A DNA stretch of 64,000 nt from an uncultured virus (IMG/VR IMGVR_UViG_3300031952_000012) (lineage: Duplodnaviria > Heunggongvirae > Uroviricota > Caudoviricetes). The stretch is taken from the IMG/VR virus record IMGVR_UViG_3300031952_000012. One strand, given 5' to 3'. The notes beneath the pieces were generated by a model. That model was not told where the DNA came from and searched no databases. It saw nothing but the letters and a program-made list of their open reading frames with translations. Below, piece after piece: positions 1 to 26,631 of this stretch; position 1 is the stretch's first letter; every line of letters begins with the position of its first letter. Position numbers and translations under genes: made by a program.

Positions 1-155
1 TCGAGACCGTATCGAGTAAGCATAATCTTCTTGAGCTCGGCGAGCGCCTGCTCGTGACCGAGGTGTCCTTCTCGCCATTGACGCAAGAGCGCTTCTTCCT
101 TTTGCGCGTCGGCGTGTGAAATCAAATTCTCAATCCGTTCGTTCTCTCTGCTCAT
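1..155 (-). CDS. Hypothetical protein, 3' partial (MSRENERIENLISHADAQKEE...)
   Basis: Manual translation; open from ATG at 155 to the window edge. Confidence 0.55.
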   Translation of the reverse strand, partial: MSRENERIENLISHADAQKEEALLRQWREGHLGHEQALAELKKIMLTRYGL

Positions 156-342
156 CTTTCACCTCTTGCAAGGTCACCCGCGAGAGCGACCTACGATATA
201 TTTCTGCTAGTACTCTGACCTCCTTCACGTGTTGTGAAATGATAGCGCACTCGTCTTCAAGGTCTTGCACGGCCTTTCTCACGAGCGCAAACTGTTGTTC
301 GAGTACACTTGTGGTTGCGCTGAAATCCGTTGCGGTATCCAT
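130..342 (-). CDS. Small hypothetical coiled-coil protein
   Basis: 70 aa ORF with GGAGG SD upstream. Confidence 0.65.
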   Translation of the reverse strand: MDTATDFSATTSVLEQQFALVRKAVQDLEDECAIISQHVKEVRVLAEIYRRSLSRVTLQEVKDEQRERTD

Positions 343-475
343 GATGAAGTCCTCCCCGCTCTCCTCGATATCGATATCACCCCCCCTTGAGATTCCGTAT
401 AAAAATAATTCGAGGCCTTGAATTTCGAGGCTCTCTCGTATTTCATGCTAAAAAATTCCAGCGTTGCCAAAATTA

Positions 476-763
476 CTACTTTCTTCCTTCCCCCGGCAAA
501 GACCCGCCGGGCACGTACCACTTTGGTTTTGGCTCTTCTTTCACGCAAAGCAAAGGGTCACGAAAAACCGTTTCCGGCGGGTTTTCTGCGACCAATCCGC
601 CCGCAGCCTGGAAGCCATGCAAGTATGCGGAGCGAAGCGCTAGACGAATATCAACCGCTAGCACCACGTGTGAATCTAGCTGGTCCTGCAAGTAACTTTC
701 CATGTTATGCGCGCGCAAATATTTTTCAACTAAACCTGCCAATGCTTTGTCTAGGTCGTCCAT
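476..763 (-). CDS. Hypothetical early protein
   Basis: ORF 476..841; preferred start MDDLDK at 763 follows a GGAG SD. Confidence 0.6.
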   Translation of the reverse strand: MDDLDKALAGLVEKYLRAHNMESYLQDQLDSHVVLAVDIRLALRSAYLHGFQAAGGLVAENPPETVFRDPLLCVKEEPKPKWYVPGGSLPGEGRK

Positions 764-815
764 GTTTATCTCCGAAAGAAACGCCCGGCAAGATACACCG
801 GGCGTGAAAGTTATT

Positions 816-1847
816 TTATTGCTGTGTCGAGAAGGGGTCATACTCTCGGCTGATGGTCAGTCCTTCCCAATTAATAGAAACAAGAACGGCGTATTTCGGG
901 AAAACTTCACCCTCGCAATTCTCGCACGTGACCTGATGATAGCGCAAAGTACACCTAGCCTGCAAAAGCAACTCACGCACTTTCGCGACGAAGGCGGTAT
1001 GTATGGGATACAAATCTACTGGGAGTGACTCTGCATTCTCCGCGTAAAAGCTAACCGAACGCTGATAGCAAGAATCCGTACACTCGGGGCACTCATCTTT
1101 TTCAAGCGATTTGTAGCGCGCAAACTCCTCCATCGGTGCGAAAAAAATAATTCGCGCATACTTGCGCAAATCATCTTCGGCGAGAAGGCCATCGCGAAAT
1201 TGATTGGCGATCTCATTTGCGCCCTCTTCTTCCAATAACCCCTCGCGAAGGAATTTTTCGATGCGCTGCTTTTTCTCTCTATACTCGGACCCAAGCTCAG
1301 CGATCTCTTTTTCACGTTTTTCTTTTTCTGCTATCGATGCCGCAAGCCTAGCCGCGCAATTGGTCTGATATATCTCAGTCATTCGCGTCACTAGCGAAGG
1401 CATGATAACGCGCATTTCCTCCGCGCGACTGATAGTATCAGGGTCGATAGGCACATATCCAGGGCGACAAATACTAAGCACTCGCTCAAAATCAATAATC
1501 TCAGACTGAATCTCACGCGCCTCCGAAAAATCCCGCGAGTACGCCACGAGCTTTTCAAATTCATCGAGAGGCATCTCGACCTCGGGCGAAACCGCCTCAC
1601 CCTTGGCGAACAAATGCCAGAGCACGGTAAGTGTTTGATGATTCGTGTTATCGACCACTTCACCAGTAGTGAGATCGATGCGCCCGTAGGCACTCAATTG
1701 GGTCGCGGTCCCTTTAACCGTAACGAATATTTTTTGAGGGGGCACACCGAATTTGTCGGCATATGCAGCGAGATCGGGCGTCGCCCAATCGAGGAAAAAA
1801 TGGTTAACTTCTACTTCGTGGCATCGCACTACCATTTTCGTTTCCAT
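816..1847 (-). CDS. Hypothetical protein with coiled coil and C-terminal Cys-rich (CxxC) domain
   Basis: Long ORF; start METK at 1847 after GGAG; CPECTDSC and CENC motifs. Confidence 0.75.
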   Translation of the reverse strand: METKMVVRCHEVEVNHFFLDWATPDLAAYADKFGVPPQKIFVTVKGTATQLSAYGRIDLTTGEVVDNTNHQTLTVLWHLFAKGEAVSPEVEMPLDEFEKLVAYSRDFSEAREIQSEIIDFERVLSICRPGYVPIDPDTISRAEEMRVIMPSLVTRMTEIYQTNCAARLAASIAEKEKREKEIAELGSEYREKKQRIEKFLREGLLEEEGANEIANQFRDGLLAEDDLRKYARIIFFAPMEEFARYKSLEKDECPECTDSCYQRSVSFYAENAESLPVDLYPIHTAFVAKVRELLLQARCTLRYHQVTCENCEGEVFPKYAVLVSINWEGLTISREYDPFSTQQ

Positions 1848-1999
1848 TTGTGCTCCCATACCCAGACAATTCCGGGCGCCCTGCAATATCGAGCGAGACA
1901 ATTCTCGCCCGAGTGCTTCACCAGCAGTGCTACGCTCTCTTCCTCTCAATCATCGATGACTTTCCATGTTATGCGAGCGCAAAATTCAGCGGTCGTCAT
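1829..1999 (-). pseudogene. Small ORF interrupted by an in-frame TGA (1946-1948)
   Basis: ATG overlaps the upstream stop (ATGA); frame reads MTTAEFCARITWKVIDD*EEESVALLVKHSGENCLARYCRAPGIVWVWEHKWKRKW. Confidence 0.35.
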
Positions 2000-2331
2000 T
2001 TTTGTTCTCCAACTTCTAAAAACTCGTACAATTCGTCTTCACACTGAGAGCCGGCTTGCATAAGATAAGACGAATCCAAACCGACGACACGTGCACGCCG
2101 CATAACTTCCGCAAGGGCTTTGTATGGACCTTCACTGCGCGCAACAACTTTTTTCCTATCATGCTCTTCATCATCTCCCTGGCAAGAGCCTCGAGTCTCA
2201 AGCGCCACTGCCCGATAAGAAGCTCCGCGCCTTCCCACCTCGACCTTAACATCGTGATACTGGTGCCCCGGAACATGCCCATAAGGTTCACCCACAGTAA
2301 CAGATGCGATAGTTTTAAAACCGTTTTTCAT
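1996..2331 (-). CDS. Small early protein in leader-repeat array
   Basis: 111 aa, AAGGAG SD, preceded by the conserved hairpin. Confidence 0.8.
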   Translation of the reverse strand: MKNGFKTIASVTVGEPYGHVPGHQYHDVKVEVGRRGASYRAVALETRGSCQGDDEEHDRKKVVARSEGPYKALAEVMRRARVVGLDSSYLMQAGSQCEDELYEFLEVGEQK

Positions 2332-2362
2332 TTTAATTCTCCTTTGGCGTCATGCGCGCCAT

Positions 2363-2545
2363 TTAGCGAGCCTTTACTATTGTCAATTGAAACTCATCGT
2401 CGCCTATTCGTACGACCAATCCGCGATTACTCGTGAGCAGTCCCTCGGCGGAGAAAGTCGAAACTGTAATCGCTTTCTTCTCATCGATCTCATCAGATTC
2501 CTCGATAACGTTCATCAACAAAGTCTCAAAGACACTCTCTCGCAT
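2363..2545 (-). CDS. Small acidic early protein
   Basis: 60 aa, AAGGAG SD; GLVVR..D.EFQLTI motif that I recall from mobile-element small proteins. Confidence 0.75.
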   Translation of the reverse strand: MRESVFETLLMNVIEESDEIDEKKAITVSTFSAEGLLTSNRGLVVRIGDDEFQLTIVKAR

Positions 2546-2590
2546 TTTATTTTCTCCTTGAGCGTCATACGCTGATTGACTACCAGTGAA

Positions 2591-3175
2591 TTACCACTTG
2601 AAATACTCGCCAAATTTTTCGGCGTGAAGCTCGCAATAGCGACCAAGAAATTCAGCCGCCGAGTCATTTCCCCCTTCGCTACGCACTTTCTCGCGGAGTT
2701 CGGCGTTCATGAGCTCAACGACCTCGGGAGGCATCTCACTGCGTTGCCCCTGAAGAACAGCTGCACTGCTAGTATACGCGCCCGGGAAATCAATCGTGAC
2801 AATGACGTCGCCATCCTCGCAAACAGCGACGCCGCCAGCCGCCTGGCCGTTGTCGTCCATCTCAACCGCCGCTTGAATTGCCTCTCGGATGCCTCCCGAG
2901 ATTTCGATCTCTTCTTTGCAACTCGAGATCGTGTACCTATTCACGATCTCAAGATCATCGATTCCCTCGCCGATGAGAAGTGACTCTTCATCCCACGACC
3001 ACACGGCGCTCGTGAATTCGGGGGTCACCCCCCCGAAAATGGGAAGATCGGTCATATCAATTTGTTCAGCGAGGTGCGTCTCATGTCTGCGATCGTAGTT
3101 GTGAATGGATTTGATGCGGTCGAACAGATCCTCGAGACTGCTAGCCTCATTGACTTCGACATTCGGGGTTTCCAT
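2591..3175 (-). CDS. Acidic multidomain early protein with C-terminal AcrIC5-like domain (putative anti-CRISPR fusion)
   Basis: Start METPN after AAGGAG; C-terminal LMNAELRE...EFL..Y...HAEKF resembles AcrIC5 as I recall it (unverified). Confidence 0.65.
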   Translation of the reverse strand: METPNVEVNEASSLEDLFDRIKSIHNYDRRHETHLAEQIDMTDLPIFGGVTPEFTSAVWSWDEESLLIGEGIDDLEIVNRYTISSCKEEIEISGGIREAIQAAVEMDDNGQAAGGVAVCEDGDVIVTIDFPGAYTSSAAVLQGQRSEMPPEVVELMNAELREKVRSEGGNDSAAEFLGRYCELHAEKFGEYFKW

Positions 3176-3216
3176 TTTGATCTCCTTTGGCGCCATGCGC
3201 CAGGTTCACTGCCAGT

Positions 3217-3687
3217 TTACTTGGATATTTTCGCCAGAGCGGCGGCGAAGGCCGCGTTAAAGGGCGGCGCGACGACTACTGGTACCGGCGCGACCGCCGG
3301 CTGAACTATGCCCGCGTCGAGCAAAAATGCGGGGGAGACCTCGAGAGTCGTGCCGTTAACGACCTGTCGATACTCGGCAGACCGGCGCTTGTATTCATAT
3401 TTCTTATAAATTCCACCTTCTTGCACCGCGAGTACGGTGCAAAAGGCGTTGCCTTGAAGGTCTTCTCGTGCCACTTGAGACGACCCCGCGCCTTCGACTG
3501 GCGCGATATCTTCACCTACGACTACCCAGTCATTTCCGGCTTCGAGCCGGTAACACGAAATACCGGCCGACCGGCCGAGGGGAACAAGCGTCCCCTTAAA
3601 AATTTTCCGCCCCTGCAGCTCTTCCGACCCGATTATCTCGAGGCCGGTACGCCCATTGATGCTGTGGTGTTTAATCAATGTTTCCAT
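3217..3687 (-). CDS. Hypothetical early protein
   Basis: Start METLIK after GGGAG SD and leader hairpin. Confidence 0.75.
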   Translation of the reverse strand: METLIKHHSINGRTGLEIIGSEELQGRKIFKGTLVPLGRSAGISCYRLEAGNDWVVVGEDIAPVEGAGSSQVAREDLQGNAFCTVLAVQEGGIYKKYEYKRRSAEYRQVVNGTTLEVSPAFLLDAGIVQPAVAPVPVVVAPPFNAAFAAALAKISK

Positions 3688-3743
3688 TTTCGTTCTCCCT
3701 TTGGCGTCATGCGCCATTAACTGCCAGTGAATCTACTCGTTAG

Positions 3744-4040
3744 TCAAATCTGGTCATCGTGTCGACGCAAAAACGACACGAAACGGTTAATGTAAGCTAA
3801 TGCGTTTCCGCAGTAGTCGTCCCAGGCCTCTTCCTTCTCATCGACCTCCTCCTTCTCATCCGCTTTATCCCAGTCTTTAACCCTCCCCAGCGCGATAGCG
3901 ATGGGGATATCGTGCTCTGTGCTTGTTTCGCCAAATTCCGTCGTACTAACTGTACAAAAACCCTCACGGGTTTCTGTAATTTCTCTCCACCTGCAAACTT
4001 CATCTCCACTTGAGTCGACTTCGTGGTTGGTGAATTTCAT
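3744..4040 (-). CDS. Small highly acidic early protein
   Basis: 98 aa, D/E-rich. Confidence 0.7.
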   Translation of the reverse strand: MKFTNHEVDSSGDEVCRWREITETREGFCTVSTTEFGETSTEHDIPIAIALGRVKDWDKADEKEEVDEKEEAWDDYCGNALAYINRFVSFLRRHDDQI

Positions 4041-4156
4041 GGTTTAGCTCGCTTTGTTAGGTTGTTTACGCTGATCTCATCGGTCGAACAGATCGACAAG
4101 ACTGCTGGCATCATTGACTTGATTCTCCCTTTGGCGGCATGCGCCAGGTTCACTGC
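4037..4156 (-). pseudogene. Decayed 5' fragment of a paralogue of gene 2591..3175, with its leader
   Basis: 4081-4120 matches 3117-3156 (QVNDASSLVDLFDR* vs EVNEASSLEDLFDR); leader 4124-4156 matches 3181-3212. Confidence 0.75.
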
Positions 4157-4157
4157 T

Positions 4158-4445
4158 TTAAATCGCCGCTAATAATTTATTGAGCAAGTCAAACCGTAAA
4201 GTGAGATGACTTTTGATCCAAAAATCTGCGGCGGGTACCGCGTTAATCGCCTGCTCAAATCGTGCGATGACTTCAGGCGTTGCCGCACGCATCGCTACCG
4301 GGCTCTCAGTCATGCGACTCACGATGTCAGCTACTACGCGATATCGGATTTTTTCCGCCCATTGTATTTGTTTTTCCGAGCCTTGAAGCTTGGTCGTGAT
4401 ATTCACCGCTACTGTTCCATATGCGCTTTGATTTTTGATTTCCAT
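4158..4445 (-). CDS. Early protein with GSEKQ.xWA motif
   Basis: LQGSEKQIQWAEKIR...AADFWI motif; start MEIKN after AGGAG. Confidence 0.75.
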   Translation of the reverse strand: MEIKNQSAYGTVAVNITTKLQGSEKQIQWAEKIRYRVVADIVSRMTESPVAMRAATPEVIARFEQAINAVPAADFWIKSHLTLRFDLLNKLLAAI

Positions 4446-4569
4446 CTTGTATCTCCTGAGCGTCACACGCTCTCTTGTTTCTCAGTTAAACCAAAGAAGA
4501 ACCGCTTGACTGGCCAGAGCAATTTCTAGCGTTTCAAGATGTTCTTCTTTGTTTCAACCTTATATAACT

Positions 4570-4598
4570 AGTATAAGCGACCTATGCGAACTATGCAA
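4570..4598 (-). promoter_or_regulatory. Sigma70-type early promoter TTGCAT-N17-TATACT
   Basis: -35 at 4598-4593, -10 at 4575-4570, 17-nt spacer, A-tract upstream; points into the small-gene array. Confidence 0.75.
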
Positions 4599-4607
4599 GT
4601 GCCTCGC

Positions 4608-4892
4608 TTAACTATTTTTTTCGTCTAGCAATTTCAATCGCTTAGCCTCTTTTTCGAGTAAGAGTCGCTTTGACAATATCTCGCTCGTCCTCGTCATAAT
4701 CGCGGCAATCTCTGCCTCGCAGGTGTCGCACCCGTGGGCTCCTCTATCGCCCGCGAGATGCGCTTTTGCGGTCGCGCAAAGGTCGTGCGGTGGATATCGT
4801 GGGCATTTCACTGGTTGTGTATGCTGAAGATTATCACCGCAATTAAAATCGTCGCAGTTATGGCACACCTCGGATGGCGTCTTCTTATTCAC
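4608..4892 (-). CDS. Small Cys-rich (putative Zn-binding) protein
   Basis: CHNC, CDTC and further Cys; AGGAG upstream of GTG. Confidence 0.6.
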   Translation of the reverse strand: MNKKTPSEVCHNCDDFNCGDNLQHTQPVKCPRYPPHDLCATAKAHLAGDRGAHGCDTCEAEIAAIMTRTSEILSKRLLLEKEAKRLKLLDEKNS

Positions 4893-4946
4893 TGGTTGTG
4901 TGACTCCTGATTCTCACTGGCAGTGTCCAAACTTCCCGCGAAAAAA

Positions 4947-5027
4947 TCACTCCATCGTCGACAAAACATAAACCACGAGCGCTAGCACTATCGCGCCGAT
5001 GACCGCGTCAAACAGGTCGCAACACAC
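4947..5027 (-). CDS. Putative 26-aa single-pass membrane peptide
   Basis: GTG 2 nt after the FHA stop; VCCDLFDAVIGAIVLALVVYVLSTME. Confidence 0.3.
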   Translation of the reverse strand: MCCDLFDAVIGAIVLALVVYVLSTME

Positions 5028-5029
5028 GG

Positions 5030-5773
5030 TCAGAGTCGCACGAGCTTGAGCCACACTCGCCCGCCGAGCACTATCACCGACCCGAGCTCGACAGCGATCC
5101 TGTGCCCGTACAATCGAGGGTCGATGACGTCGGCTCCGAGTTGCGTTCCCGTGGACCCCTTGAAAATGAAAAGCTTATAAACGACTTTGTCGCCCTCGGT
5201 CGTTCTTAGCAAGCGCAAGTGCTGACGTGACACTCCCTGTGAAAATACACCGGGAACTTTTCCGAGGTCGAGGTCGGGAAAAATATCTCGTTGCGGGTCC
5301 TCTCGACCGATGAGCGTCACGTCACTCTCGATCCAGTGCGTTACAATGGTCTCTCGACCGTTCGAGTCGAGCACGAGGAGCGCATCGCCATGACGTTCGA
5401 CCTCATCGTTGGAAATGTCACCGTCACTCTGCTGATTTTTTTCATCGCGTTTCTGCTCGGCAGTGTCGACGACCTGCGAGGGTGGCGCGCCGGCGTTCTC
5501 TTTGTCGTCTACGCTGCTCTCGCCTTGCTGTTTCTCGGGCTCTGGCTGCCCCGCTGTTGGTTTTTCCCCCTCGGTTGGGGTGCTCACTAGATCGGGCGCC
5601 TTTGCGTTGACGGTGAGGGCCTCTGAGCCTTCGAGCGCTTCGGCGGGAATGAGCGGGAAGAGATCGGGCGGGGGAGGCAAATTGCCCGAGAGCAAATCTC
5701 CGCCGCAAGAATCGCATTTGATCGCCTCGGGGTTCTCGGTCACGCAAGAGCAAGTCGGGCATCTCTTTGCCAT
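5030..5773 (-). CDS. Zinc-ribbon plus FHA domain protein
   Basis: N-terminal CPTC...CDSC; disordered linker; FHA motifs IGR, VSRQH, STGT. Confidence 0.85.
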   Translation of the reverse strand: MAKRCPTCSCVTENPEAIKCDSCGGDLLSGNLPPPPDLFPLIPAEALEGSEALTVNAKAPDLVSTPTEGEKPTAGQPEPEKQQGESSVDDKENAGAPPSQVVDTAEQKRDEKNQQSDGDISNDEVERHGDALLVLDSNGRETIVTHWIESDVTLIGREDPQRDIFPDLDLGKVPGVFSQGVSRQHLRLLRTTEGDKVVYKLFIFKGSTGTQLGADVIDPRLYGHRIAVELGSVIVLGGRVWLKLVRL

Positions 5774-5774
5774 T

Positions 5775-7091
5775 TTAGTTCTCCTTCTTCTCGACCTGCA
5801 AACCGGGTTTCAAGAACGCGGGGCGCGCGGCGACAACCGTGCTCTCGACGACCGCGCGATTGACGGCGTCCATCGAGGTCAATCCCTCTGCGATAATCTC
5901 ATCGAGTATCGCCTCGTAACGCTGTCTCATTTTTTCGTCGTGCAACTCTGCGCACCGCTTCACTAACACTCTGAGATATTTTGTCACCTCGTTGATGCTG
6001 CCCTCGCCCTTCTTAAATTTCTCGTGCGCGGTCGTGAAATAGGAAGTGAGTTGCGTGATCGTCACTCGACGATAGACCTCGGAGACCTCTGCGTTTGCTA
6101 GCTGTGTCAGTTTTCTATCTGACACGAGCTCGACCGAGAAGAGTTTCTTCTCCGTTTGGTCGACCAAGTTCATCGCGGGAACGTCATAAAAAACGGTCGC
6201 TTCACACACAGTCTGTGTACCAGCGAGAGCGCTCTCCACGTCCATCACAACCAAGAACGAATATTCTTTTTCTGACTCGACATTCCCGACAATAAATTTT
6301 GCGGTCCGCTTGCTGTCAAGTTTTAGGTTGCCGAGAAATGCCTGCTCGGGCGCGGCCTTGTACGCGAGGCTTACCTCGACGGTCGAAGAGAATTTGAGCT
6401 CAAGGCGCACGTTCGCCACGACGAAATTCTCGACGCGTCCGACGATTCCCATCAGCGTCTCTTTGATTTTCTCGCTCTCGTTTGCAGCGAAGACCACGCC
6501 GTTGGAGCTCGTGACCATTTGCAAAAGATGATCGGCTTTGTAGTCGGCTCCCATGCCGACCGCGAAGAGTTGCACCTTTGACTCGGCGGCGGCAAGGGCA
6601 ACCGCGCTTGCCGTTTCCGGGAAATCGGCGACGCCGTCGGTCAAGAGGATGACGACCGAAACGGGCTTTTGACCTCTCTCGCAGGCGCGCGTTGCCTCTG
6701 TGATCGCGTCGGTCATATTCGTTGAGCCGCCGGCGAGATCACGAATGGCGTCTATCTGCGCGAGAATCTCGGAGCGGTTCGCGTCGGTGACCGTTTCGTT
6801 GTCGAGCAGAATGTGAATGCGCGATTGAAACGCGATGAGCGAAAACTTTTGGTTCTCGCTGACCGATGACGCGATCATCTTTGCCGCATCAATGGCGGCG
6901 TCGAGCTTGCCATTCACGAGCATCGACGCACTACAATCAAAGAGCAGGCAGAGCGACGCGTCGACTGGGAGCGAGACCTTCTGGTCGAGGTCGACACCCG
7001 GCTTTATTTTCACAAGCAGTTTAAGCTCGTGCTCGACACCCGTCATCAACTTCTCGTGGTCACCTAGCAACTGCAAGTCTAACAAGTTCAT
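5775..7091 (-). CDS. von Willebrand factor A (vWA) domain protein
   Basis: MIDAS DCSAS, GGST and LTDG; start MNLL at 7091 after GAGG. Confidence 0.9.
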   Translation of the reverse strand: MNLLDLQLLGDHEKLMTGVEHELKLLVKIKPGVDLDQKVSLPVDASLCLLFDCSASMLVNGKLDAAIDAAKMIASSVSENQKFSLIAFQSRIHILLDNETVTDANRSEILAQIDAIRDLAGGSTNMTDAITEATRACERGQKPVSVVILLTDGVADFPETASAVALAAAESKVQLFAVGMGADYKADHLLQMVTSSNGVVFAANESEKIKETLMGIVGRVENFVVANVRLELKFSSTVEVSLAYKAAPEQAFLGNLKLDSKRTAKFIVGNVESEKEYSFLVVMDVESALAGTQTVCEATVFYDVPAMNLVDQTEKKLFSVELVSDRKLTQLANAEVSEVYRRVTITQLTSYFTTAHEKFKKGEGSINEVTKYLRVLVKRCAELHDEKMRQRYEAILDEIIAEGLTSMDAVNRAVVESTVVAARPAFLKPGLQVEKKEN

Positions 7092-7116
7092 TCGCTGCCT
7101 CGCTCTCAAATCAAGT

Positions 7117-8241
7117 CTACACTTTCTCATTCCAAAGTGACCACGCAAGTTTTGAATCCATCTTTGATCCTACATATTCAAATCCAACCGTTTGTCTGAC
7201 AAGATCCGCCGTCCAATCCTGCCCAACTTTCGTCGACCCCGATCTCTGCAAAGAGCAAGGCCCAATGATGGTTGTCTTCCAATTCTTGCTTCTTCTTCTT
7301 GAGACAATCATTCCCGGTGCAGAAGTTCTAGAATAATAACGCCCTTCAAGGCCGCGTATCAGCGAACCAATTGCATCGCTCATTGCGTTGCCTATACCAA
7401 CGCCCTGAAAATCAGGAAGACAAACAGTACGATGCTCTCGCCAACTGTTTTTCAATGTCGCGTGCGGCAAATAAATCACAGCCGTAAATGCAACAGGACT
7501 ATTATTCCAAACCGCAACAAAGCACCTCGAAGATCTCGTCAACGTACGACTCAAATAATGATGCGATGCGAATATTTCCCACGCTTCACGAGAGACTCGC
7601 TTAATGTCAAGACTGATTGCTGGTCTTCGTTGAAGATCCCTCCAGTAAAACTTCCCTATATGCGGCTCAAATGCCCAATCTGGTTGAAGCCAATCGATCA
7701 CGTCGTAATGGCATGTAGCCGCGATGAACTGTTGATTTCTCTTTCGCACGGTTCGGGCAATGGCGGCGCTGCCAATCTGTGCGACAGTGCGATCAACAAC
7801 GGACGTGAACTCATCGACGACTGTCAACTGTTTATTTTCTGAAAGAGCTCTTGCAATATTAACTCTGAATTGCTCTCCGTTTGACAGCACGTGAAAAGGT
7901 TTCAGCCATGAAGGCGGTGAAGAAAAACCGACTGAAGATAAAAGCTCAATGACATCTTTAATCGACTCACTATCAAAACAATCAACAATCGCTTTGTTTT
8001 TGTCCCATTCAAACGGCTTCATCAACGCATCAGCGAATAACTCACGGGCAATGGTCGTCTTGCCTGCGCCACTTGGGCCCACTATTAAACCAACATTCCA
8101 AGTTCGTTCGTCGAGTGGAAGATCAACATCCCATTCTGAAGAAACATTTTCGCTCGGAGGAACATCAAATATGCCACGCAATTGCAAAACTTTTGAAGTA
8201 ACAACAATCGGAGAACTGACTACAATATGAGCGCGCGGCAT
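7117..8241 (-). CDS. ABC-type ATPase fused to GNAT/Mom-like acetyltransferase
   Basis: Walker A GPSGAGKT, signature LSNGE, Walker B VVDE; C-terminal HHYL and acetyl-CoA motif PDFQGVGIG; no TM segments. Confidence 0.85.
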   Translation of the reverse strand: MPRAHIVVSSPIVVTSKVLQLRGIFDVPPSENVSSEWDVDLPLDERTWNVGLIVGPSGAGKTTIARELFADALMKPFEWDKNKAIVDCFDSESIKDVIELLSSVGFSSPPSWLKPFHVLSNGEQFRVNIARALSENKQLTVVDEFTSVVDRTVAQIGSAAIARTVRKRNQQFIAATCHYDVIDWLQPDWAFEPHIGKFYWRDLQRRPAISLDIKRVSREAWEIFASHHYLSRTLTRSSRCFVAVWNNSPVAFTAVIYLPHATLKNSWREHRTVCLPDFQGVGIGNAMSDAIGSLIRGLEGRYYSRTSAPGMIVSRRRSKNWKTTIIGPCSLQRSGSTKVGQDWTADLVRQTVGFEYVGSKMDSKLAWSLWNEKV

Positions 8242-25362: not shown

Positions 25363-25976
25363 TCCTCACCTCGTAGCACTCGCAGTAAACCATCCGAGAG
25401 TGTGCCTGTTTTACCCGCTGCCTTTTTCAACTTTCGCTTCGCTTCCTTGAAGTCTTCACGAGACTCAAACTCGAGTTCGAGTAAAAAAGGCTTATCGCTC
25501 GTCACGCCATCGGTGGGCGCCTCGATACTCTCGGGAAACTCCTCGAGGTCGACTTCGGTCGAGAGCATCACGTCGAGCTCGTCTGTCGTGAATCCAAGAT
25601 GAGAGAGGTCCTCCATCGACCAATTGGCGCTTTTAAGCTCAAGCATGATCTGCGAGGTCATCGATAGATCAAGCTCGCCGCGAAGGCGGTTCATCCCGAT
25701 CTGTAATGCGTTCATCTCGTCATCGTCTGATTTCACCAGCACCGCTGGGATTTGATCTAGTTTGAGGTCCTGTGCCGCTCGCAGGCGATGATGCCCATCG
25801 ATAACCTGGTACTCATACGGTGTTTCGGCCTCGGAGTGCTGGCGAATGAGAATCGGGCTCAGGAATCCGAAGCGCTCGATCGCTTTCACAAGAAGGCCGT
25901 ACTTCTCAGCCTCCATTCGATTCGGGTTGTTTTTCGCGATTCCAACCGATGCTGGGTCGACTGTCAGCGTGATCAT
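25359..25976 (-). CDS. Second ParB/Srx-like protein
   Basis: NPNRM...IERFGFLSPILIR...VIDGHHRLRAA. Confidence 0.85.
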   Translation of the reverse strand: MITLTVDPASVGIAKNNPNRMEAEKYGLLVKAIERFGFLSPILIRQHSEAETPYEYQVIDGHHRLRAAQDLKLDQIPAVLVKSDDDEMNALQIGMNRLRGELDLSMTSQIMLELKSANWSMEDLSHLGFTTDELDVMLSTEVDLEEFPESIEAPTDGVTSDKPFLLELEFESREDFKEAKRKLKKAAGKTGTLSDGLLRVLRGEE

Positions 25977-26527
25977 AGAAAATCCTTTGCCATGCGTTGG
26001 AGTTCTTCGTTTTCTCGGAGCGCTTTTCTCACGTTGTAAACCTCTCGATACAATTTTTTCAAATCCATATTTTCCTCTCTTGCAATCTCTCGCGGGGTCG
26101 TCTCGAAAAACAGAATTTTCAAGACGATGTCCGCGTGCAGACTTTGTCTTCGCACAACTTTGATCAACTGTGAATGGACGCGCCCGCTACACTCTTTTTT
26201 GAGCAGTGCTTCGAGCGGGTCGAGTTTCAAATCGGGGTAGCTGTCCTCGATATTTTCAATATCTTCTCTTGATACTCCTTTCAGATTTTCGGAGTACCCG
26301 GCACTGACCGGCGAGTTTTCTCTCGAGAGCACGTGCCGAATTTGCCTCGAGATGATCACCTTAAAATAAGATTTTCGAGAGCCCTTAGTCGAGTTGTAAT
26401 TTTTTAAGCTCTCTAAAATTGTCACCCATGCGACTTGTTTAAGAGTCGCAACATCTGCCCAACGAACGCGCCTCTTATAAGAGTGGGTGACTTTGCAAAT
26501 CAGCGTCTCAACCTCATCGAACCGCAT
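25973..26527 (-). CDS. Phage sigma70-family RNA polymerase sigma factor
   Basis: Region 2-like LKQVAWVTILESLKNYNSTKG..SY; region 4 HTH TPREIAREE; start MRFDE. Confidence 0.8.
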   Translation of the reverse strand: MRFDEVETLICKVTHSYKRRVRWADVATLKQVAWVTILESLKNYNSTKGSRKSYFKVIISRQIRHVLSRENSPVSAGYSENLKGVSREDIENIEDSYPDLKLDPLEALLKKECSGRVHSQLIKVVRRQSLHADIVLKILFFETTPREIAREENMDLKKLYREVYNVRKALRENEELQRMAKDFL

Positions 26528-26602
26528 GGTTCCCCCCATGACTGACTGTCGAGTGTAGAACAGTGCTTTTAAATCACTCGAAAAAAATAGTAAACAAAAA
26601 AC

Positions 26603-26631
26603 TTGCACACTTTAAATTTTTAGCTTAGAAC
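26603..26631 (+). promoter_or_regulatory. Possible sigma70 promoter TTGCAC-N17-TAGAAC
   Basis: AT-rich divergent intergenic region with A-tract; -10 imperfect. Confidence 0.4.

Follow-up and report, generated by a model that had tools for sequence, protein, structure and literature searches.

A hairpin leader repeated at cassette boundaries in an uncultured sediment phage resembles the promoter-early stem-loops of T4-type phages

The promoter-early stem-loops (PeSLs) of T4-type phages are mobile regulatory cassettes (Arbiol et al. 2010, PMC2839356; Comeau et al. 2014, PMC4122927), and their crossovers have been placed either in the loop or in the stretch from the -10 element to the start codon (PMC2839356). 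The element described here is a short hairpin leader that lies immediately upstream of a Shine-Dalgarno sequence and start codon, and which is repeated six times within 2.1 kb of the DNA of an uncultured virus of the Caudoviricetes (IMG/VR record IMGVR_UViG_3300031952_000012). The whole 64-kb stretch of this DNA that was analysed is referred to as the window. The array of small genes that contains the leaders is best read as a hyperplastic accessory-gene block of an uncultured, myovirus-like sediment phage.

The likeness to PeSLs extends to both organisation and behaviour. In both cases repeated composite motifs flank small ORFan genes in hyperplastic regions, the 3' end of the motif consists of a stem-loop followed by a Shine-Dalgarno sequence and a start codon, recombination between copies accounts for insertions, deletions and replacements between close relatives, and the phage possesses a T4-like recombination toolkit; those copies of the present leader that bear a promoter share all three parts, namely promoter, stem-loop and Shine-Dalgarno sequence. 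However, a strong sigma70-like promoter is found in every PeSL, whereas here it is present at only the first of the six leaders in the window and at a minority of those in related arrays. Furthermore, the PeSL stem-loop lies between or over the promoter hexamers and is a terminator or attenuator, while the stem-loop of the leader is in the 5' untranslated region (UTR), downstream of the -10 hexamer and directly before the Shine-Dalgarno sequence, and its stem of 5-6 bp is not followed by a T-run and so is probably not a terminator. Mini-circles, formed when flanking copies recombine, are a further feature of PeSLs, and one that has been looked for by inverse PCR. The phage also has a family A DNA polymerase and is not of the T4 type. 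Overall, the element is probably a PeSL-like portable expression leader that doubles as a homology patch for the shuffling of cassettes, an interpretation held with moderate confidence.

[quoted passage not shown] Like the leader, these are asymmetric conserved repeats containing a Shine-Dalgarno sequence, and in a subset of non-structural genes they lie just upstream of the start codon, always in the same orientation as the gene; an inverted repeat precedes about half or more of the copies in both systems, and the function of both is presumed to be translational. The leader consensus nevertheless differs from that of the SAS, which is 13 bp long, allows two mismatches and is situated 3-8 bp ahead of the start codon; only the embedded Shine-Dalgarno core is shared. 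The arms of the leader are 5-6 bp long with a gap of 3-7 nt, in contrast to the imperfect 17-bp arms and 4-13-bp spacer of the ESAS, and its copies are packed into a single array of 2-4 kb, rather than being spread over half a genome. A role as an exchange junction is not among the SAS features described in the available parts of either paper. These comparisons, together with that to the anti-CRISPR-associated hairpins considered below, had been proposed in a sequence-only reading of the window, and all three proved apt. The same reading held the element to be undescribed, which is correct of its sequence, as this is new and has no Rfam match, but not of the kind of element that it represents, which has already been described.

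The leaders in the window, numbered c1 to c6 from the promoter (Table 1), were recovered using a covariance model made from 38 distinct leader copies and applied with its filters off. All six are on the minus strand, from 4495 to 2329, and score 41.2-59.5 bits (E 1e-6 to 7e-11), the best non-leader match in the window being one of 15.2 bits (E about 1); this level of repetition is far beyond chance. The six hairpin-Shine-Dalgarno elements listed by the sequence-only reading are therefore present where it placed them, with five of the hairpin coordinates exact (4472-4458, 4145-4133, 3715-3703, 3201-3189 and 2573-2561), although that of c6, given as 2357-2345, is off by one base and better drawn at 2361-2345, with a stem of 5 bp and a loop of 7 nt. 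In a search of the window for repeats, five leaders formed a single 21-nt family (D1) with 81-100% identity. When the entire window was scanned on both strands for any perfect 4-6-bp stem ending 0-4 nt before a Shine-Dalgarno-like word, 16 sites were found, five of them within the array.

Read from 5' to 3', the leader comprises a box of about 14 nt, the hairpin, 1-3 nt, a strong Shine-Dalgarno sequence, 5-9 nt and the start codon, with conservation extending into the second codon, which is often identical between copies. The box is found in four of the six window leaders (c2-c5). The hairpins are GC-rich and, apart from the longer loop of c6, have a three-base loop resembling a start codon. 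Two types of stem are distinguishable, type A in c1 and c5 and type B in the other four, and the distance from the preceding stop codon to the stem ranges from 1 to 29 nt, with the stem of c6 starting just one base past the stop. No part of the window matches Rfam at the gathering score; at E <= 5 there are two chance-level matches (E > 4) within 1900-4700, neither of them at a leader. Intrinsic terminators on the gene strand can be rejected, in that there is no T-run after the stems and a terminator scan calls none of the leaders, as can internal sigma70 or extracytoplasmic function-type promoters within the box and hairpin, the hexamers of which do not fit. RNase III processing signals are found between the early cistrons of T7, but the stems of the leaders are far too short to fit such sites.

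Relatives of the array were sought through exact-pattern scans of IMG/VR and of metagenome contigs from JGI. In IMG/VR, multiple copies were present on two contigs only, with all other matches single and attributable to chance, while the JGI contigs contained 14 loci on 13 contigs. About 30 loci with single matches were taken as chance rather than as leaders; all eight single-match loci inspected in viral contigs were inside coding sequence and without a Shine-Dalgarno sequence and start codon. Protein searches with two of the flanking genes added a further array contig, L036, as well as L037, which ends before the array. Thirteen arrays were then compared, including that of the window and some truncated where their contigs end; L052 is excluded from all counts, since its one copy stands at the edge of a contig amid unrelated sequence. 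In these arrays 65 leaders were located, representing 46 distinct sequences when flanks are included.

Across the relatives the flanks of the array are 85-99% identical to those of the window, and all arrays are bounded by the conserved genes F2 (upstream) and F5 (downstream). Between these genes, clustering of the encoded proteins reveals that nearly every one of the 13 arrays differs in the content or order of its cassettes. The order in the window is F17, a remnant with F0b, F1, F0, F13 and F18. In L035 it is c4-c5-c3', with F0 and F13 ahead of F1, as opposed to c3-c4-c5-c6 in the window; L058 has ten cassettes, including three promoter modules, and the last cassette of L036 and L055 is F19 or F16. 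The inference of the sequence-only reading that the leader is a junction of cassette exchange is supported by these differences and by the breakpoints at the leaders described next.

Comparison of the arrays shows the leaders, above all the part from the Shine-Dalgarno sequence to the start codon, to be the sites of cassette exchange. In pairwise blastn alignments of the 13 arrays, 155 of the 295 distinct internal endpoints of homology are at most 40 nt from a hairpin centre, where 37.8 would be expected were they uniformly distributed. Leader-to-leader joints are also observed when contigs from four other sediment runs are placed on the window: a joint from 2342 to 3181 drops c5 and c4, and those from 4144 or 4120 to 4457 drop c1. 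Other-run contigs diverge into unlike sequence at 3700, 2342, 4457 (in two runs), 4119 and 4474.

The position of the crossovers can be refined by considering which neighbour each hairpin variant accompanies, using counts taken by eye from a table of every leader and its adjoining genes. The variant is the same in four of four leaders after F15, and likewise in four of four after F13, despite three downstream families in each case; both leaders after F17 have the same rare variant (two downstream families), and the right arm of the stem is identical in all eight leaders after F1 (three downstream families). Looking in the other direction, the F1 family (c3) is found behind five classes of leader variant (12 leaders), and the F0 family (c4) behind four classes that include both stem types (11 leaders). 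As the hairpin variant goes with the upstream gene rather than with the cargo behind it, most crossovers occur 3' of the hairpin, in the near-identical stretch between the Shine-Dalgarno sequence and the start codon. On this point the sequence-only reading, in which each slot begins with the element, needs correction. Some crossovers extend into the first codons, as seen in one pair of unrelated families with their first 9 residues in common and in a further two families with the first 17-20 in common. Others are located in the promoter module that precedes certain leaders.

The composite cassette c2 records one such past crossover inside the first codons. The DNA of its remnant open reading frame (ORF) at 4120-4081 is 88% identical to the 5' end of c4 (3156-3117; family D5), in a different reading frame. 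At the equivalent of c2, five relatives have an ORF of 20 aa and one of 93-104 aa, and in L064 the two are fused in frame.

There are several reasons for caution in ascribing these exchanges to the leaders. The enrichment of endpoints is no proof that the leaders cause them, because intragenic breaks are lost through selection and leaders fill nearly all of the intergenic space. The endpoints come from 13 related arrays, and so are not mutually independent. Finally, repeats of this type can lead metagenome assemblers to break contigs or to form chimeras, although the recurrence of the same arrangements in separately assembled contigs argues against an artefact of assembly.

Downstream of the array there is another repeat, 25 nt long and not related to the leader, at 1983-1959 and 719-695 (family D11, 96% identical). 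In L036, sequence homologous to 767-695 of the window is joined directly to that from 1983 onwards, and hence this repeat also marks a junction of exchange or deletion.

The distribution of the leader beyond these arrays is very limited. In the whole contigs of three relatives (24-40 kb), matches to the covariance model are confined to the array and to F11, a conserved gene 2.5 kb downstream, which provides the only non-array copy found; the scan of the window itself likewise places all leaders in the array. F11, which lies beyond position 1 of the window, encodes a 206-aa protein containing a pair of cysteine motifs that, judged by eye, are of the DnaJ zinc-finger type. The model has no match at E <= 1 in 80 loci (981 kb) from distant phages in which the neighbouring ATPase is 45-57% identical; these loci contain 111 background hairpin-Shine-Dalgarno sites, none of which is repeated. 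The nearest record available for comparison, G001 (35.9 kb), has no leader copy, and positions 1-8000 of the window have no match in a phage collection when searched with blastn in distant mode. The leader is thus, as far as these searches extend, specific to one narrow phage clade.

The pairing of the hairpin was studied in the alignment of the 38 distinct leaders. Its six-pair stem is paired in 92.7% of cells, compared with 82.7% in shuffled alignments, none of 500 of which reach the observed value, and shifting the structure by 1-3 columns leaves only 22-56% paired. RNAalifold returns the leader hairpin and no other structure from the alignment; in particular, a second hairpin upstream, in the box, is not predicted. 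While the three central pairs are invariant in all 38 copies, the remaining three have changed on both sides: the outermost is G-C in 13 copies and U-A in 6, the second from the outside is A-U in 17 and G-C in 13, and the innermost is U-A in 15 and C-G in 13. A third, 'hybrid' stem, found before F11, has the outer pair of one type and the inner pair of the other. As this cannot have arisen from one crossover in the loop, either the pairing or the symmetry of the stem is apparently under selection. Furthermore, the stem is unaltered in orthologous leaders with flanking genes that are about 87% identical, the two differences seen being in the box and the loop. Two bases of the loop and the first base 3' of the stem are also invariant in all 38 copies, which may reflect recognition by a factor, or merely recent common descent.

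The compensatory changes in the stem noted by the sequence-only reading therefore stand insofar as pairing is kept through double changes, but the strength of this evidence is limited in a number of ways. There are only three stem variants and therefore only two or three independent covariation events, and no cell of the alignment represents a single-side (G-U) intermediate. The innermost position is unpaired in 10 of the 38 copies. The stability of the hairpin alone is modest (-2.3 to -8.7 kcal/mol), and the minimum-energy fold retains it in just two of the six window copies when each is placed in a 71-nt context. Selection for a palindrome at the level of DNA would yield the same pattern of pairing. 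In addition, a degenerate half-leader (in L035) and a copy with a 3-bp stem (in L058) still precede genes, so the hairpin is dispensable for at least some of them.

Under the interpretation as a portable expression leader, the 20-50 nt of identity between leaders would act at the DNA level as a homology patch for the phage's RecA/UvsX-like, gp32-like and SbcCD-like genes, and recombination there would result in cassettes being deleted, duplicated, replaced or reordered. With crossovers chiefly between the Shine-Dalgarno sequence and the start codon, the box and hairpin would stay with the upstream gene. At the RNA level, the leader would offer any incoming gene a ready, context-independent ribosome-binding site, beside which the local hairpin most likely acts in cis; it could shield the ribosome-binding site from the coding sequence that precedes it, or make a processed end of the mRNA more stable. 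A natural contrast is informative with regard to the 3' half of the leader. In five loci the Shine-Dalgarno sequence before a 20-aa remnant is weakened, while in L035, where the same gene is whole, it is intact, the hairpin being identical in both. This fits a translational role for the 3' half, and constitutes a single event shared by descent. Elsewhere, in L062 (3444-3509) and L064 (at about 726), a variant of the leader has approximately 16 extra bases after the first Shine-Dalgarno sequence that are able to pair with it, and these are followed by a second Shine-Dalgarno sequence; it is possible that this is a natural switch-like variant.

Among the alternatives, the one that survives best, though on balance still unlikely, is that a trans-acting phage protein uses the hairpin as its operator. 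An Aca-like helix-turn-helix regulator, or a translational repressor similar to RegA or gp43, would bind there, next to the Shine-Dalgarno sequence, and switch off all the cassettes together with the leader-bearing core gene. In T4, the gp43 operator is a hairpin directly 5' of the Shine-Dalgarno sequence, and the hairpin of the leader similarly adjoins the ribosome-binding site. The three central pairs, two loop bases and first post-stem base that remain invariant while the outer pairs vary fit sequence-specific recognition better than a purely structural role, but are equally explained by recent common descent and gene conversion; moreover, a single binder with sequence specificity is hard to square with stem types that differ at three of the six positions in each arm. 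F11, as a conserved gene outside the array, bears the leader in the manner of an autoregulated regulon member, and the -35 hexamer of some promoter modules is overlapped by a small palindrome similar to the stem.

The precedent for such an operator in an anti-defence setting is provided by Aca1 and Aca2. These proteins are reported to bind to short conserved hairpins that acr operons carry in their 5' UTRs, after the transcription start and ahead of the ribosome-binding site (PMC13551039). One cargo gene of the present array encodes an AcrIC5-like domain, as identified by sequence match. In the paper cited, however, the Aca hairpin is described only for the first 5' UTR, rather than before every cistron of the operon as here, and no Aca-like regulator was found among the scanned cargo and flank proteins of the array. 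Similarly, no cognate protein equivalent to those of the gp43 and RegA operators was identified. No helix-turn-helix Pfam match was found among the cargo and flank genes tested, nor any DNA-binding family in 19 proteins at E <= 0.05; a helix-rich candidate, F7, is missing from the window and four other arrays, and its low-confidence structural model (predicted local distance difference test, pLDDT, 62.5) has no fold match at E <= 0.001. A broader form of this proposal is that the leader is the RNA operator of a predicted phage regulator which gates, in one step, a plug-in anti-defence array and one leader-bearing core gene. The clade would then have an integrase-free, integron-like platform, in which a single unit of 40-50 nt combines expression signal, regulatory handle and homology patch for cassette capture; this we regard as doubtful.

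It is similarly improbable that the hairpin is a functionless passenger, with the leaders simply being copies of one good ribosome-binding region that has spread through duplication and gene conversion. This would account for the very small number of sequence variants, all within one narrow clade, for the degenerate and half copies that still precede intact genes, and for the weak thermodynamic support. It is difficult to reconcile with three pairs having changed on both sides with pairing kept, with a hybrid stem that is not the product of one crossover between the two types, and with stems that remain untouched between flanking genes as divergent as those of the orthologous leaders above.

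The array also resembles an integron, in that promoter-less cassettes are read from an upstream promoter and the cassette boundary has an imperfect palindrome that moves together with the gene upstream of it. By contrast, no intI tyrosine recombinase is present among the ORFs scanned, the crossovers occur at no fixed site and the palindrome is just 15 nt, compared with the 57-141 nt of attC sites, which have their own architecture. That the palindrome instead acts as DNA, forming a hairpin or cruciform in single-stranded or supercoiled DNA that is recognised by a nuclease or recombinase in integron-like, site-specific exchange, an idea that the authors of PMC2839356 raised for PeSL stem-loops, would be in keeping with symmetry kept without G-U pairs, with the common unpaired C/A at the innermost position being a G-T or G-U wobble on the opposite strand, and with an SbcCD-like palindrome nuclease and RuvC-like resolvase encoded by the phage, but is very improbable given that a scan of window ORFs revealed neither an integrase nor any other site-specific recombinase, that crossovers are 3' of the hairpin and sometimes in the first codons or promoter module instead of at a fixed point in the palindrome, that 15 nt is short for extrusion, and that neither co-orientation with genes nor a fixed distance to the Shine-Dalgarno sequence is needed by a DNA recombination site.

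The promoter of the array forms part of a module of about 95 nt with an A-tract upstream. It was not called by a simple promoter scan; in relatives, each of its hexamers is conserved in 13 of the 14 distinct promoter-bearing module sequences, and the 17-nt spacer is constant in length and variable in sequence. Copies of the module are preceded by three different upstream genes. The proposal that one sigma70 promoter serves all six slots consequently holds for the window but cannot be generalised, as relatives have up to three promoter-plus-leader modules per array.

Between the promoter and c1 there is a 72-nt insertion in the 5' UTR (4482-4553, minus strand) that is unique to this window. The region folds as a long hairpin (-35.3 kcal/mol over 4560-4475). 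No other copy could be found by blast in the window or in any of the loci compared; all relatives lack it, as do the contigs from the other sediment runs, of which those from runs X2 and X5 join 4481 to 4554. Possible identities for it are a small mobile hairpin and an attenuator.

Table 1. Positions of the leaders, promoter, cassette genes and flanking genes, and of related features in other contigs
Feature	Sequence	Coordinates	Strand	Description
Promoter of array	Window	4570-4598	-	sigma70-type; -35 at 4598-4593, 17-nt spacer, -10 at 4575-4570
Leader c1	Window	4443-4495	-	Type A stem; hairpin 4472-4458; promoter-proximal; 49.8 bits
Leader c2	Window	4112-4169	-	Type B, innermost position unpaired; hairpin 4146-4132; box; 42.7 bits
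Leader c3	Window	3685-3737	-	Type B; hairpin 3716-3702; box; 57.1 bits
Leader c4	Window	3173-3225	-	Type B, 6-bp stem fully paired; hairpin 3202-3188; box; 59.5 bits
Leader c5	Window	2543-2596	-	Type A, 5-bp stem; hairpin 2573-2561; box; 57.7 bits
Leader c6	Window	2329-2382	-	Type B with 2-nt insertion; 5-bp stem, 7-nt loop, 2361-2345; without box; 41.2 bits
Upstream flank gene F2	Window	4608-4892	-	94 aa, cysteine-rich; in 10/10 arrays reaching that side
Cargo c1	Window	4158-4445	-	95 aa, family F17; no Pfam family; weak phrog_16123 match
Remnant ORF of c2	Window	4037-4114	-	25 aa
Cargo c2b	Window	3744-4040	-	98 aa, acidic, isoelectric point (pI) 4.5; without own leader; start overlaps stop of remnant ORF
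Cargo c3	Window	3217-3687	-	156 aa, family F1; in 12/13 arrays, the sole cargo so widespread
Cargo c4	Window	2591-3175	-	194 aa, acidic, pI 4.2; AcrIC5-like C-terminus
Cargo c5	Window	2363-2545	-	60 aa, acidic, pI 4.5; no family
Cargo c6	Window	1996-2331	-	111 aa; no family
Downstream flank gene F5	Window	816-1949	-	About 377 aa, conserved
F11 leader and gene region	L035	17659-18329		Hybrid stem; only non-array copy found
F11 leader and gene region	L036	16521-17191		Hybrid stem; only non-array copy found
F11 leader and gene region	L058	11969-12426		Hybrid stem; only non-array copy found
Leader with weakened Shine-Dalgarno sequence	L053	690-742		Equivalents in L055, L058, L036 and L020
Intact counterpart of weakened leader	L035	13600-13652		
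c2-equivalent composite	L061	1308-1724		
c2-equivalent composite	L064	1275-1508		

No homologues of the cargo genes were found outside the clade, and searches of PHROGs and Pfam assigned no family to five of the six window cargo genes, nor to the nine cargo families of relatives that were tested. The most widespread, c3, has no family match, no relative of solved structure and no Atlas match, and its AlphaFold model (pLDDT 41.5) is unusable. The exception is c4, of which residues 151-192 match the AcrIC5 family (Pfam PF22147, 30.2 bits against a cut-off of 27, E 4.9e-7), with the C-terminus also matching the solved AcrIC5 chain (PDB 7yhr_A, E 8e-4); PF22147 is present in all three of the c4 homologues found. 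The AcrIC5-like part comprises the C-terminal 42-54 residues and is fused to an N-terminal domain of about 140 residues without a family, whereas AcrIC5 itself is 60 aa. Several of the cargo proteins are acidic. The description of the locus as an anti-defence array in the sequence-only reading therefore gains support for c4 through this predicted domain, while for the remaining cargo, which has no assignable function in five of the six genes, such a role is plausible but extrapolated from one domain match.

The wider context is that of a tailed phage whose DNA occurs in sediment metagenome runs. Using PHROG and Pfam, genes were identified in the window for a tail sheath, baseplate, tape measure, endolysin, family A DNA polymerase, primase and helicase, along with ParB-like proteins and the recombination functions, which are RecA/UvsX-like, SbcC/SbcD-like and RuvC-like proteins and a gp32-like single-strand-binding protein. 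No tRNAs were found in the window. Between 26.6 kb and position 1, the minus strand carries nearly all of the genes. At 25973-26608 on this strand, a 211-aa protein has a weak match, below the cut-off, to Sigma70 region 2 (E 6e-4); it may be a phage sigma factor of relevance to the timing of transcription. Upstream of the array (5030-8241, minus strand) are three genes, all of them conserved, for an ABC-like ATPase (phrog_11143) that has thousands of homologues, for a protein with a VWA domain and for a zinc-ribbon protein whose FHA-like match is weak, although L037 is without the stretch homologous to 7028-5739 of the window, representing nearly the whole of the VWA gene.

In an uncultured phage that is not of the T4 type, and for which 13 natural variants of the array are available, accessory and putative counter-defence genes are shuffled at a common leader with a ribosome-binding site. 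This widens the idea of the PeSL to leaders that lack a promoter and lie within an operon. The hairpin variant that travels with the upstream gene locates the zone of crossover, and would help in predicting the boundaries of cassettes in metagenomic phages. The small, clade-specific cargo proteins, of which one is AcrIC5-like and several are acidic, are candidates for anti-defence screens.

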